Virus record (IMG/VR): IMGVR_UViG_3300020469_000010
Length of the DNA: 64,000 nucleotides
Direction: 5' to 3' (one strand)
DNA from: a virus
Positions 24,067 to 29,135 of this stretch are shown piece after piece. Both the position numbers and the translations under genes were made by a program. A model generated the notes under the pieces. The model worked only from the letters and a program-made list of their open reading frames with translations, did no database searches and had not been told where the DNA came from. Numbering within the stretch: position 1 is the stretch's first letter; every line of letters starts with the position of its first letter.

Positions 24067-24099
24067 GAATGATACTGAAATTTTTTGGTAGGTAAATAT

Positions 24100-24627
24100 A
24101 TGTCAATTCTACAGGCCAGTGGCATACAATTTGGAGATAATACAGTTTTAAATTCCAAGTATGGAATTATTCCTCAGGGAAGCAGTATGGTATTCTATAA
24201 ATCTTCTGCTCCAAGTGGATGGACAAAATCTACAGCACATAATAATAAAGCATTAAGAGTTGTATCTGGATCTGGTGGTGGATTTGGTTCTGGTGGAACT
24301 TCTGGACCGGGAGGATCTTCCTTCACTTCTATCATGGCAAGTAGAAGTGTTTCTGGATCAGTAACTTCGGGTGGTGCTGTTGGTAATCATACATTAACAT
24401 TGCAGCAAATTCCATCACATAGTCATAATGCAGGTTCTAGTGTAACTGTTAGTCCAGGTAGTCCTGGTACACAAGGTCGTGCTGTTAATAGTCAAGCACC
24501 TAATACAGGTAGTGCTGGAGGAGGTTCATCTCATAATCACCCATTTAGTGGTGGTACTTCTCCTGTTTCTGGTAGTGTTGATTTGAGAGTTCAATATATT
24601 GATGTTATTGTTTGTAGTTTTAACTGA
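24100..24627 (+). CDS. short tail-fibre/collar-domain protein with HxH motifs
   Basis: APSGWTK..NNKALRVVSG, HTLTLQQIPSHSH, GGGSSHNHPF, VQYIDVIVC; ATG at 24100. Confidence 0.85.
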   Translation: MSILQASGIQFGDNTVLNSKYGIIPQGSSMVFYKSSAPSGWTKSTAHNNKALRVVSGSGGGFGSGGTSGPGGSSFTSIMASRSVSGSVTSGGAVGNHTLTLQQIPSHSHNAGSSVTVSPGSPGTQGRAVNSQAPNTGSAGGGSSHNHPFSGGTSPVSGSVDLRVQYIDVIVCSFN

Positions 24628-24636
24628 GGACAATAA

Positions 24637-25923
24637 ATGGCAATTTTACAAACCGATGGCCTACAGTTTGGAAATGGTGGTGTAATTGAGACAAAATATT
24701 TTTTAGTCCCACAAACAACTCAGATGTTGTTTTATCAAGCATCTGCACCAACTGGATGGACTAAAAAAACAACACACAATAATAAAGCATTAAGAGTTGT
24801 ATCTGGAACTGGTGCAGGTAGTGGTGGTACTAGTAGTTTTACAAGTATATTCAAGTCCAGTAATACTGTATCAATGTCAGGATCTCATAGTGGATCTGTT
24901 GGCAATACAACATTATCTTTACAACAACTTCCATCACATAGTCATGGTGTTGGAAGTCCATTCAGCGCAGTCAGTTCTGCCGGTACTTCTCCATTCAGAC
25001 AACCACGAAGACAACCTAGATCATACTCTTTCAGGGCTGAATATAGACAACCAAGAAACTTTCGAGCTTCAGTTGCTTTCAGACGACCAATTCAGTTTAG
25101 ACAACCAAGAAATAGTCAAGTTGCAATTAGGCAAAGAAGAGACGTCAGATTTAGAAATGAACTTGAAATAAGATCAAGAAATCCGTTTAGATATAGAAGT
25201 CCATACAGACAACCAAGATCTTATAATACAACTGTATCAGTAAGATACAGGCAACCATTTAATAATAGAGTTGATTCTGGTAGAAATAGAAGTCCATCTA
25301 GACAAAGACGTTCTGTCAATTTTACAGTCAATCAAAGAAGGGAAGATAGGGGAAGAAGACGAGATCTAAAACGCAGAAGAAATCAGAGAAGAAGAACTGA
25401 TGTTCGTTTTAGATTGTCAGCTCGAGTAAGAGTTAATCAACGAAGAAGAAGCAACTTCAGACAAAGAAGACAGACTACTACTAACCAACCGGCAAGACAG
25501 AGAAGAGATGCTCGGCAGCCGAGAAGTTATAGTAATCAGGCTGATGTGAGACAAAGAAGATCTGACAGACAAAGAAGAGATGTCCCACAGCGTGCTAGGT
25601 ATCAAGGAAGGTTAAGAGTTGAAATTAGACAACCACGCAGATATCAAGCCTTTGTAGAATTTAGACAAAGTGCTGCTTATAGGCAACCAAGAACTTTCAG
25701 ACTAGCAAGAAGATACCCAGCAACAAATAATAATAGAGCAAATCAAAGAATATTGACACCCGGTGGAACTATTAGAGGAGTTAATACTCAAGGACCTGCA
25801 ACTTCGTCGGCTGGTGGAGGTTCATCTCATAATCATCCGTTTAATGGACAATCTTTCTCAACATCTTTAGGTCTTGATATAAGATTACAGTATATTGATG
25901 TTATTATGTGCTCTTTTAACTAG
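24637..25923 (+). CDS. paralogous short fibre with a ~250-aa arginine-rich insertion
   Basis: Both ends align with 24100..24627; the insertion at 24997..25749 lies between the SHSH and HNH motifs. Confidence 0.85.
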   Translation: MAILQTDGLQFGNGGVIETKYFLVPQTTQMLFYQASAPTGWTKKTTHNNKALRVVSGTGAGSGGTSSFTSIFKSSNTVSMSGSHSGSVGNTTLSLQQLPSHSHGVGSPFSAVSSAGTSPFRQPRRQPRSYSFRAEYRQPRNFRASVAFRRPIQFRQPRNSQVAIRQRRDVRFRNELEIRSRNPFRYRSPYRQPRSYNTTVSVRYRQPFNNRVDSGRNRSPSRQRRSVNFTVNQRREDRGRRRDLKRRRNQRRRTDVRFRLSARVRVNQRRRSNFRQRRQTTTNQPARQRRDARQPRSYSNQADVRQRRSDRQRRDVPQRARYQGRLRVEIRQPRRYQAFVEFRQSAAYRQPRTFRLARRYPATNNNRANQRILTPGGTIRGVNTQGPATSSAGGGSSHNHPFNGQSFSTSLGLDIRLQYIDVIMCSFN

Positions 25924-25973: not shown

Positions 25974-26357
25974 ATGAGTGATGCGTTTGGAAAATGGTGT
26001 CCCTTAATAAGAAAAAACTGTATTGAACATAAGTGTGCTTGGTATATGCGTATTGCTGGACTAGATCCTAATACTGGTCAAGAAATTGATCATTGGGGAT
26101 GTGCAATAAGTTGGATGCCAACTTTACTTATTGAAAACTCACAACAACAGAGGCAAACTGGTGCTGCTGTTGAGTCTTTCCGTAATGAAATGGTCAATGC
26201 AAATGAAAGTAATCAACAAATGTTAGATGCTGTTGGTAACATGTATCTTGATATGTGCGAGCAACAGGGTGTCAATGTTGATCAATATATAGAACCTTTA
26301 GAAGGCATAGATAATAACGAAGAAAACATTTTACCACCTGAAGAGGAAAGACCATGA
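25974..26357 (+). CDS. Cys-rich fibre-associated protein
   Basis: CPLIRKNCIEHKCAW...WGCAISW..LLIENSQQQRQTGAAVESFRNEMV. Confidence 0.75.
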   Translation: MSDAFGKWCPLIRKNCIEHKCAWYMRIAGLDPNTGQEIDHWGCAISWMPTLLIENSQQQRQTGAAVESFRNEMVNANESNQQMLDAVGNMYLDMCEQQGVNVDQYIEPLEGIDNNEENILPPEEERP

Positions 26358-27691
26358 AAATTTCTATTATTCCACAAGATAATCGTATTGTAGTTGATGG
26401 AAAAACTGTAGATCTTGATGATAATGATATTAGGTGGGAATTTGAAGATGAGCATATTCATGCTATTCAGTGGAAAGATAGCATGGGTGAAGTTGAATAT
26501 GAAGATGAAATTGGTAAAGATCCTCTTCCCAATAAATCCTTTGGTCAGGATGAATTTGATACCATTGTTCAACCATACTTGTCTTTCTTTGAAAAATTTC
26601 TAACTGTTACAGAGCAAAATGAACTTGAGGCTATATTAGAAGAAGAAGAGAGATTAGCAAATGATATAAAAGAATCAGATCTTAATAAGATGCAAGAAGA
26701 AGAAAATATTTTAATGATAGAAGATCTTCAGTTACAAAATAAAGAAGTTAGACAAAATTATATGCAAATTGCTGCCGAATTAGGTGATGTTCTTGAAGAG
26801 AAAAAAGTAACTGAACAACAACTTAAACTAGAATATGATAAAGAATTGTTTGAAAAAGATCAATTGCTTAAGCAACAAGAACATGCAAAGATAGAGGAGT
26901 TTTTTAAAAAAAAATCGGCCGATTTTCTTGCAAACTTAGAAAAACTTGAAGAAGATTTTAATTCCCAGAAAGAAAATCTTGCCGAAGAAAAAAAACAATT
27001 TAACGACTATATACAAAAATATAGAGATACTTTAGAAAAAGAAAGTGAAGAAATCAATGAACAATTATTAGAAGGCAAAAGAAATGCAGAAAAAGATAAA
27101 ATTTTAAAAGAAAAGTCACAAGCTAATGCTGAAGAGTCAATGTCTATAATGAGGGCAGCAAATGAATTAGAACAGCAAAGTATGGAATTGGCATTTGAAG
27201 AATTGGAGTTAGAAAAAACTCGTTTACGGAATGAAAGAAGATTGGAAATTGAACGAATCAAACTTCTTGAAGATGAACTAGAAAAAGAAAAGGAAAATAT
27301 TGAACTGTCATACATCCAAGAAAGAGAAGAAATACTTAAGTATGATATGAAAGATGATGCAGAACTTACATTCTATCAGTGGCAATTAAAAGATACTGCT
27401 GAACTTGAAGCTGATTATATTAAAAAACAACAAGATAAATTCGACGATTACATTGCTGAGCGGGAAGGAACCTATAGAGATATTGAAGAACGCGTTCGTC
27501 TTAAAGAAATTGAAGGGAAATCTGAACTTAAAGAAGTTGAAGATGTTTCATCCATCCTTGATGAAATTAATCCAGAGGAATTTTATCAATCTCTTACAGA
27601 TGATCAAAGAGATTCAAATAGTTTTCCGGTAGAAAAAGCAACTGCTTGGTTTAAAAAACTAAAAGAGGTAATGGAAAAGAATGAATCTTGA
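26354..27691 (+). CDS. fibre-assembly-chaperone-like N-terminal domain fused to a long acidic coiled coil
   Basis: MKISIIPQD..IVVDG..IHAIQW..GEVEY, then ~350 aa of E/K/L/Q-rich helix. Confidence 0.7.
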   Translation: MKISIIPQDNRIVVDGKTVDLDDNDIRWEFEDEHIHAIQWKDSMGEVEYEDEIGKDPLPNKSFGQDEFDTIVQPYLSFFEKFLTVTEQNELEAILEEEERLANDIKESDLNKMQEEENILMIEDLQLQNKEVRQNYMQIAAELGDVLEEKKVTEQQLKLEYDKELFEKDQLLKQQEHAKIEEFFKKKSADFLANLEKLEEDFNSQKENLAEEKKQFNDYIQKYRDTLEKESEEINEQLLEGKRNAEKDKILKEKSQANAEESMSIMRAANELEQQSMELAFEELELEKTRLRNERRLEIERIKLLEDELEKEKENIELSYIQEREEILKYDMKDDAELTFYQWQLKDTAELEADYIKKQQDKFDDYIAEREGTYRDIEERVRLKEIEGKSELKEVEDVSSILDEINPEEFYQSLTDDQRDSNSFPVEKATAWFKKLKEVMEKNES

Positions 27692-29135
27692 TTTGTTGAG
27701 GAACAACTATTTGGTTGTTCCAAATTTTATTACCAAAAAAGAAGCATTAAAATTAAAGACGGAATTTGAATTAACAGATGAAGTTTTTGAATTTTCCGGT
27801 GATGAACAGGCACCTAATTCATCATCAATATATAATTATCTTCCTGCGTTAGAACTTTTAGCAAATAAAACATCACATGTATCTGAAATTATAGGTGAAA
27901 CTGTTTTACCAACTTATGTTTACTCCAGAATTTATCATAATGGGAGTGAATTAGTAAAACATACAGATCGTCCAGCATGTGAAATATCTTTAACTCTACA
28001 TCTTGGTGGAGATAAACCTTGGGCAATTTGGATAAAAACACCTAATAATAAAAATAAGTGTGTAAATTTGAATCCAGGTGATGCTATGCTATACTTGGGT
28101 TGCATTGCTCCACATTGGAGAGATACTTTTGAGGGAGATAATTATACACAGTTTTTCTTACATTATGTTAGGAGTCGTGGATGTTGTAATAGTGTTTATT
28201 TTGATAAACATGATAATGACAGTGATTTACCATCAAACCATAAATTGAATCATTTTTTAGAAAAGGAGTATGAACAAATGGGAAGACTTATTATACCAAG
28301 AAAATGGGAAGAATGTGATGAATTACTAAATGAATTTAATGAAAATAATCTTGAAATAGTTGATTCTGATTCGGAGTCGCAATATATTGATTTTGATGAT
28401 TCAAAATCAAAAATTTTTAGTAAACAAAAAGAACCTAAAATTGAACCCAAGTCAGAAGAATATTTTGATTTTGATGAAGTAGTAATTATCAACAAAAAAT
28501 ATGAGAAGAATTTTGTTGAAACAACTTCTAAAAAAGAGGTAAAAGATGTAAAAGATGCAAAACTTTCAAATAAAAGTTTGCATGAGTTTATACTGCATGT
28601 TGAAAATTGGATTGAACCAGATTTTTGTGATGAATTACTAAATGAATATGCAGATACTAATTTTTGGGAACCAACATTAACTGGTAGTGGATATGATCCA
28701 GGTTCTAGGAAATGTAATGTTATCAATATTTCTGACGAACATATTAAAAATGAAGCAAATACTGAGACTAGAAATGAACTTGACGAGTATCTATTTGAAA
28801 AAGTTTCAAAGTTAATTAACAAATATCAATCTGAGAATGATGATTTCTTGTTAGAAATGCAGGAAGATAGTGGATATGAACTGTTAAAGTATGAAGTTGG
28901 TGATTTTTTCCTTGAACATAGTGATTCTTTCAAAGAAAATCCTAGAGCTTTAACTATAATTTTTGCATTGAATGATAATTATAAAGGTGGTGAAATCGGA
29001 TTTTTCAAAAGAGAGTTAATTTATAGGTTAAATGTTGGAGATGCTATAATTTTTCCAGCTAATTTCATGTATCCACATGAAATTCTTCCAGTTACCGAAG
29101 GAATTAGATTCTCGGTAATTACATGGATTGTTTGA
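27681..29135 (+). CDS. two-domain 2OG-Fe(II) oxygenase (prolyl-4-hydroxylase-like C-terminal domain)
   Basis: HTDRPACEIS..PHWR and EHSD..FPANFMYPHEILPV..RFSVITW. Confidence 0.85.
   Translation: MNLDLLRNNYLVVPNFITKKEALKLKTEFELTDEVFEFSGDEQAPNSSSIYNYLPALELLANKTSHVSEIIGETVLPTYVYSRIYHNGSELVKHTDRPACEISLTLHLGGDKPWAIWIKTPNNKNKCVNLNPGDAMLYLGCIAPHWRDTFEGDNYTQFFLHYVRSRGCCNSVYFDKHDNDSDLPSNHKLNHFLEKEYEQMGRLIIPRKWEECDELLNEFNENNLEIVDSDSESQYIDFDDSKSKIFSKQKEPKIEPKSEEYFDFDEVVIINKKYEKNFVETTSKKEVKDVKDAKLSNKSLHEFILHVENWIEPDFCDELLNEYADTNFWEPTLTGSGYDPGSRKCNVINISDEHIKNEANTETRNELDEYLFEKVSKLINKYQSENDDFLLEMQEDSGYELLKYEVGDFFLEHSDSFKENPRALTIIFALNDNYKGGEIGFFKRELIYRLNVGDAIIFPANFMYPHEILPVTEGIRFSVITWIV

Follow-up and report, generated by a model that had tools for sequence, protein, structure and literature searches.

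A long acidic helix protein of a T4-like cyanophage: membership of an unnamed fiber-tip accessory family and charge covariation with a neighboring Arg-rich fiber

The receptor-binding machinery of cyanophages is poorly known. We analyzed a stretch of 64,000 nucleotides (nt), IMGVR_UViG_3300020469_000010, referred to throughout as the window, which is a fragment of a T4-like cyanophage most closely related, among cultured phages, to Synechococcus phage S-SCSM1 (Kyanoviridae). The subject of this report is a strongly acidic protein, encoded in the window two genes downstream of a fiber-tip gene with an Arg-rich insert, that begins with a compact domain recognizable by its IHAIQW motif (the N-domain). 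The closest described protein is S-SCSM1 ORF247/gp125 (QFG06511.1, YP_010669940.1), a hypothetical protein that is also 445 amino acids long, has a net charge of -62 and the same three-part layout, and is 39% identical to the window protein over its full length and 68% identical within the N-domain. The S-SCSM1 neighborhood is likewise that of the window: open reading frame (ORF) 244 encodes a short tip protein, ORF245 a tip protein with an Arg-rich insert, and ORF246 a small Cys-motif protein, followed by ORF247. When intermediate acidic forms of the family were used in tblastn searches against cultured phages, S-SCSM1 was the only phage returned.

More distant systems share part of this arrangement. 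Gp41 of Roseobacter phage CRP-361 has a homologous N-domain, the same gene position and a net acidic charge, and belongs to the type that carries PF16778. These PF16778-bearing proteins are small (139-160 amino acids), whereas in the window protein the place of PF16778 is taken by a 300-residue acidic helix and a C-terminal motif of another kind. Uncultured acid-tailed IHAIQW proteins, such as those of contigs L143 (348 amino acids, -68) and L100 (258 amino acids, -54), form sister groups (N-domain hhalign 96.8%); their cassettes have the same gene order and strong negative charge and, in contig L105, the same downstream oxygenase family, but their fibers lack an Arg-rich insert and their tails are not detectably homologous to the long helix. 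T4 fibritin (wac) consists of an N-terminal anchor, a long helical rod and a small C-terminal element, and aids fiber attachment. Its size and layout resemble those of the acidic protein by analogy only, as there is no sequence or fold match and the heptads of the acidic protein are patchy. Gp27 of Alteromonas phage V22, a DUF4376 chaperone, is needed if the receptor-binding protein is to be functional (PMC7289586, PMC10579305). Like the window protein it is an accessory protein encoded downstream of a marine phage fiber, and the concept of a transient cap fits both, but gp27 has DUF4376 and the window protein does not. The fiber assembly protein of phage Mu, Tfa, remains on the fiber (cited in PMC10579305).

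The three-gene cassette and charge covariation

The acidic protein belongs to an unnamed family of fiber-tip accessory proteins that share a constant N-domain, and within it represents a long-helix form confined to one clade. Members of this family are encoded in a cassette of fixed order, in which a gene for an HxH fiber-tip domain is followed by a small Cys-protein gene and then by the IHAIQW-protein gene. The same order was seen in the Roseobacter podovirus CRP-361 (a 914 amino acid fiber, a 103 amino acid protein and a 145 amino acid "tail assembly chaperone") and in the uncultured podovirus contig L012 (901, 95 and 139 amino acids). In both, the fiber has at its C terminus the HxH tip domain that is found in the two tip proteins of the window, the middle protein is clearly homologous to the window Cys protein, and the last protein consists of the IHAIQW domain followed by PF16778. 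The tip domain was found in at least 586 stretches of IMG/VR. The window and 77 distinct cassettes all combine an IHAIQW domain, a Cys gene directly before it, an HxH tip upstream and a net acidic charge. The cassette is widespread, unannotated and common to marine myoviruses and podoviruses. As far as our searches reach, the N-domain family and the cassette are new, with no Pfam model and no solved structure.

Two IMG/VR scans, seeded with the acidic protein and with the tip domain, together with contig look-ups, yielded the 77 distinct cassettes, each with an upstream neighbor that could be read. All 39 cassettes with an Arg-insert fiber had a long partner and, conversely, all 39 distinct long forms (431-502 amino acids, net -26 to -72) adjoined such a fiber; no long form without one was found in this set. 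The 39 fibers were 411-528 amino acids in length with 44-96 Arg, a net charge of +28 to +87 and inserts of 280-380 residues. In the other 38 cassettes the tip proteins next to the acidic partners were all neutral, about 170-200 amino acids long and without an insert.

On a cassette tree computed from N-domain and Cys-protein sequences, the Arg-insert cassettes formed one clade (Shimodaira-Hasegawa-like approximate likelihood ratio test, SH-aLRT, 99), hereafter the Arg clade, and the trait was explained by one change; the acidic intermediate forms fell into groups neighboring that clade. Only the N-domain aligns between the sister forms and the long form, and the sister tails appear to consist of a short helix followed by disordered poly-acidic sequence. 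As a rule, members of the family's cyanomyovirus branch have an acidic C-terminal tail, with an Arg insert in the fiber or without, and the ancestor of the Arg clade probably already had such a tail.

In order to compare charges within the Arg clade, phylogenetically independent contrasts were computed on a tree made from the charge-neutral conserved parts of three cassette proteins. The charge of the acidic partner varied inversely with that of the fiber (r0 = -0.57, p = 4e-4, 33 contrasts, signs 23:9), and it did so as well with an oxygenase control gene removed (partial r0 = -0.64, p = 2e-4, 28 contrasts); the control oxygenase and the partner were themselves uncorrelated (r0 = 0.05). The relationship was specific to the insert, with r0 = -0.51 for the acidic tail against the insert and a non-significant r0 = -0.11 for the acidic tail against the tip core, and the partner and Cys protein taken together gave r0 = -0.64 against the insert. 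GC content had no effect on the charge contrasts. The charges of the three proteins summed to -4.7 in the Arg clade, with a standard deviation (SD) of 9.3 as against 13-15 for each of the main components, while the sum in the sister cassettes was -30 to -75. For the Cys protein, the acidic tail also gave a negative contrast correlation with fiber charge (r0 = -0.51; -0.45 against the insert alone).

The uncorrected correlations over these cassettes were larger (r = -0.78 for charge and r = 0.94 for spacer against insert length) and were rejected as evidence. They reflect mostly clade structure, and correlations with fiber charge are also seen for the short tip paralogue and for the oxygenase encoded downstream. 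Read as scaling, the match of spacer to insert length was also rejected, being a contrast between two clades within which the helix spacer is of nearly fixed length (347-355 versus 366-367 residues).

An earlier note on this DNA, made from the sequence alone, had proposed that fiber and chaperone expanded together as charge-matched partners and had called for a correlation of their charges across homologous loci. Within the Arg clade that correlation is present after phylogenetic correction and is tied to the insert. The idea of joint expansion is supported only in part: every long form lies beside an Arg insert and the charges covary within the clade, but the expansion amounts to a single event, and length scaling is seen between clades only. 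The earlier note had also held that long acidic tails beside insert-less fibers would refute the pairing; as regards acidity, such tails are present in the 38 insert-less cassettes.

Interpretation and competing explanations

We give about an even chance to the reading that the acidic protein serves the HxH tip cassette as an assembly or capping factor outside the virion, and that the acidic tail it had inherited was remodelled into a long helix and tuned to offset the charge of the insert. The docking site of the N-domain would be either the tip domain or the Cys protein, and the acidic helix would lie along the Arg insert and neutralize its charge while the fiber folds and trimerizes. So neutralized, the insert would be kept soluble and off nucleic acids, and the acidic protein would then depart before or at completion of the virion, as assembly factors or transient caps do. 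On this scheme the acidic tail would have been inherited and re-used, not invented for the insert. If the helix does chaperone the Arg insert, it would parallel, in a virus, the acidic chaperones that serve highly basic proteins and would explain how a fiber of charge +69 can be made safely. If it does not, the family-wide acidic tails pose a general question on the assembly of cyanophage fiber tips. Either way, the cassette offers a testable case of charge co-evolution between neighboring phage proteins.

Several results weigh against this reading. Among the insert-less cassettes, seven partners of 293-348 amino acids have a charge of -61 to -71, eleven of 258-271 amino acids have -34 to -54, and shorter ones have -10 to -43. 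A six-frame scan of the available DNA of 19 insert-less loci revealed no credible polycationic ORF (a 95 amino acid stop-to-stop stretch of +21 in contig L103 is probably an out-of-frame artefact). Since tails as acidic as -71 occur beside neutral, insert-less tips, strong acidity does not need a polycation. The Arg clade is single and its trait arose by one change, so the association of long helix and insert amounts to one historical event, and within clades longer inserts are not matched by longer helices. The control oxygenase also showed a contrast correlation with fiber charge (r0 = -0.42, signs 15:12). A literature search found no experimentally tested protein with this N-domain, and V22 gp27 was rejected as a tested relative, its N-terminus being unrelated (hhalign probability 0.1%). 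Finally, the part of the reading that places the protein outside the virion draws on annotation notes and a single trypsin-based proteome, and the lack of a virion mark on ORF247 only weakly favors a non-structural role.

A possible, though less probable, explanation is that the protein is a generic tip assembly factor or transient cap whose acidic tail has nothing to do with the insert and serves solubility, as an entropic bristle, in masking the receptor face or in repelling DNA, the charge match being incidental or a product of shared drift. The insert-less cassettes described above, with their strongly acidic tails and no credible polycation, speak for such a factor, as does the nesting of the Arg clade beside them through a single origin. 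The long forms are also less charge-dense than the sister forms (-0.13 versus about -0.2 per residue), and the charge of the N-domain covaries with the insert as strongly as that of the tail does, which hints at a general drift. Against this explanation, the covariation persists with the control gene removed and concerns the insert and not the tip core, and it is only in the Arg clade that the three-protein sum lies near zero and that the tail was remodelled into a long helix.

It is tempting to go further and to speculate that the two proteins form a polyanion-polycation pair, in which the acidic helix, joined by the Cys protein's acidic tail, zips along the insert and keeps it neutral in the cell, the net charge being tuned near zero, and the sheath is shed on release, perhaps through the ionic strength of seawater, to unmask a polycationic host-binding needle. 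We regard this as doubtful. The idea of a charge-matched pair is weakened by the acidic tails of the insert-less cassettes but is still alive because of the charge covariation.

It is unlikely that the acidic protein is a structural component of the virion, such as a whisker or strut of about 45 nm with a fibritin-like layout, free-standing or zipped to the Arg insert. Its size and domain layout are fibritin-like, its length is constant in clade A (441-459 amino acids) despite an identity of 37-40%, and the conserved elements at both of its ends suggest two points of attachment; some fiber assembly proteins, of which Mu Tfa is an example, do stay on the fiber (PMC10579305). On the other hand, 45 virion proteins of S-SCSM1 were reported from trypsin-based mass spectrometry (PMC9602691), and the GenBank record of this phage marks virion proteins systematically (18 in the first 50 kb), including ORF244, the short tip protein, but not ORF245, ORF246 or ORF247. 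The missing mark on ORF245 says little because very few usable tryptic peptides are expected from it, while ORF247 has 68 Lys and Arg that are well distributed along the chain, so that many would be expected. The heptads are patchy, no solved chain including fibritin was matched in sequence, and the N-domain family otherwise consists of small proteins of the assembly-factor type.

A function unrelated to the fiber, as an acidic DNA mimic against host defense or a host-takeover protein lodged in the fiber region, is very improbable: DNA-mimic proteins, too, can combine an elongated helix with high negative charge, and the gene sits in a variable island with many 2OG-Fe(II) oxygenase genes, but the three-gene order is strictly conserved in myovirus and podovirus loci, the N-domain is fused to fiber-assembly modules in other phages, and no PHROG anti-defense family was matched (PADLOC was not searched).

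Anatomy and family of the acidic protein

Family alignments of 18 and of 38 sequences divided the acidic protein into three parts, namely a highly conserved region of about 100 residues at the N terminus, a variable and acidic middle, and a conserved motif in the last 45 or so residues (Table 1). The protein contains 86 Glu, 38 Asp, 48 Lys and 18 Arg and is net negative in each block of 40 amino acids. The start codon is supported by identical first residues in every homologue.

Table 1. Features of the fiber-tip module in the window (positions are those of the window)
Feature	Position	Strand	Remarks
HxH tip-domain protein, insert-less paralogue	24085..24627	+	180 amino acids, two HxH motifs; S-SCSM1 orthologue ORF244 labelled virion protein
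HxH tip-domain protein with Arg-rich insert	24637..25923	+	428 amino acids, 82 Arg, net +69; proposed partner
Cys-motif protein, middle cassette gene	25974..26357	+	127 amino acids, acidic C-terminal tail, net -13; homologues in podovirus loci
Acidic protein gene	26354..27691	+	445 amino acids, net -58; orthologue of S-SCSM1 ORF247/gp125
N-terminal IHAIQW domain, amino acids 1-84	26354..26605	+	beta-rich; AlphaFold2 pLDDT 94; conserved module of the family
Acidic helix, amino acids 85-386	26606..27511	+	AlphaFold2 full-length model
Conserved C-terminal motif, amino acids ~399-445	27548..27688	+	two or three short helices; D-P...L-T...F-P-V-x-K-A-x-x-W-F...L-K

AlphaFold2 predicted residues 1-95, comprising the N-domain and the first helix turns, with a predicted local distance difference test (pLDDT) score of 94.4 from an alignment of 39 sequences. 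In the full-length model the acidic helix is single and unbroken with a pLDDT >90, and is followed by short C-terminal helices of low confidence; if straight, a helix of this length would measure about 45 nm. Its first 50 or so residues are conserved, while the center is variable with a few invariant positions. A hydrophobic periodicity of 3.5 residues was weak overall (it was reached by 15 of 500 shuffles of the single sequence) and was not significant in the family profile; heptad-type periodicity was clear only in patches, at about residues 169-225 and 323-350. The middle region is therefore best described as a long acidic helix with coiled-coil patches, and the coiled coil is only partly shown. 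The C-terminal motif was present in all long forms, and a search for it as a stand-alone small protein found no homologue.

These data bear on the layout that the earlier note had drawn from the sequence. The compact N-terminal domain of about 85 residues was confirmed as a confidently predicted fold, and the gene does lie two genes downstream of the Arg-rich fiber, with the Cys-motif ORF between them. The acidic region, put at about 350 residues in that note, is predicted to form a single helix of about 300 residues and is net acidic throughout, but the last 45 residues or so are a separate conserved motif, and heptad-type periodicity, as expected of a coiled coil, was seen in the two patches only. 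The statement that the N-domain usually occurs as a small stand-alone protein beside fibers was also supported: an exhaustive HMMER search with residues 1-95 gave 62 cluster representatives, mostly of 72-190 amino acids, located downstream of fibers with HxH tips, along with some long forms of 420-491 amino acids.

The whole acidic protein had no match in Pfam (E <= 0.01), PHROGs or NCBIfam, and Pfam has no model for the N-domain. Sequence-profile searches of the Protein Data Bank (PDB) with the N-domain and with the full-length protein gave no solved match, fibritin included. Fold searches with the N-domain were similarly negative (Foldseek against PDB, best E 0.78; VIA-align wide, best Z 3.7), and a search of BFVD returned family members only. 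The XRCC4/PAXX-like proteins, which have a head-plus-stalk form, were considered and rejected, with VIA-align Z scores of 3.2-3.4 that are far below significance.

Clues to the role of the family come from its relatives. Two small proteins with the N-domain, P0073 and P0078, have a C-terminal Phage_tail_APC domain (PF16778; 79 and 50 bits), and a third, P0083, carries DUF4376. Phrog_4912, "tail fiber assembly", aligns across the N-domain itself, and the structural neighbors of residues 1-112 in the ESM Atlas were in clusters automatically named tail fiber assembly protein. The label of putative chaperone is attached to the N-domain family by association only. The acidic protein shares the N-domain and the gene position downstream of a fiber with its PF16778-bearing relatives, but it has no match to PF16778 itself (Pfam E <= 0.01) and is not a member by that domain; a literature search for PF16778 returned nothing. 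DUF4376 (PF14301) was not matched in Pfam either, and no Pfam, NCBIfam or PDB sequence match pointed to Tfa of the Lambda/Mu/P2 type (Caudo_TAP). The Foldseek and VIA-align result lists contain no Tfa, although absence from fold lists alone decides little.

Local setting and other observations

The two tip paralogues, the Cys protein and the acidic protein are encoded on the same strand in a tightly packed module in which the acidic gene is last, and the oxygenase gene that follows has the same orientation. The stop codon of the Cys-motif ORF overlaps the start of the acidic gene (ATGA), and the end of the acidic gene overlaps the start of a gene for a double-domain 2OG-Fe(II) oxygenase. In the longer tip paralogue the Arg-rich stretch of about 250-300 amino acids is placed between the two HxH motifs. 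Profile searches of the window showed that the N-domain is matched by the acidic protein alone and the tip profile by the two tip proteins alone. No T4-type late-promoter motif was found near the module, where a sigma-70 promoter scan was uninformative.

A terminator-like hairpin at positions 27700-27721 of the window, with a 9 bp stem and a 4 nt loop followed by a T-rich run, begins 9 nt past the stop codon of the acidic gene, where the overlapping oxygenase gene has its first codons. Its effect could be to reduce read-through toward the oxygenase genes, or it may have arisen by chance.

The Cys-motif protein (window 25974-26357; L010:4693-5004; L012:4717-5004; L011:3-320) is conserved between the fiber cassettes of cyanomyoviruses and marine podoviruses and has the pattern C-P-L...C...C...W-x-C, followed by a near-invariant block E-N-S-Q-Q-Q-R-x-T-G-A-A-V-E-S-F-R-N-E. 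It has no Pfam or NCBIfam family, and may serve the HxH tip domain by handling metal or as an assembly factor.

A close relative of the window (L002:3167-4246) has two tandem short tip paralogues of 176 and 179 amino acids before the Arg-insert paralogue, which implies that the tip gene was duplicated repeatedly; two tandem tip genes of about 185 amino acids were also seen in many insert-less loci.

The two-domain protein encoded downstream of the acidic gene (window 27681-29135; L001:8345-9706) is named "ferrochelatase" in the RefSeq record of S-SCSM1 and in PHROGs 2954 and 3531. Pfam gives only 2OG-FeII_Oxy_3 for this protein and the GenBank record of S-SCSM1 calls it a 2OG-Fe(II) oxygenase; the name ferrochelatase is probably a propagated misannotation. 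By eye, the ORF that follows the acidic protein in an insert-less cassette (L105:6302-6997) resembles the N-terminal half of the window oxygenase. If this pattern holds widely, the flanking oxygenase is not peculiar to Arg-insert fibers, which bears on the idea that the oxygenases modify the insert. Another insert-less relative (L106:6652-8521) carries, downstream of its cassette, a tandem run of three paralogous genes; by eye their N-termini resemble glycosyltransferase family 25, and the genes may form a module for the modification of surface sugars.

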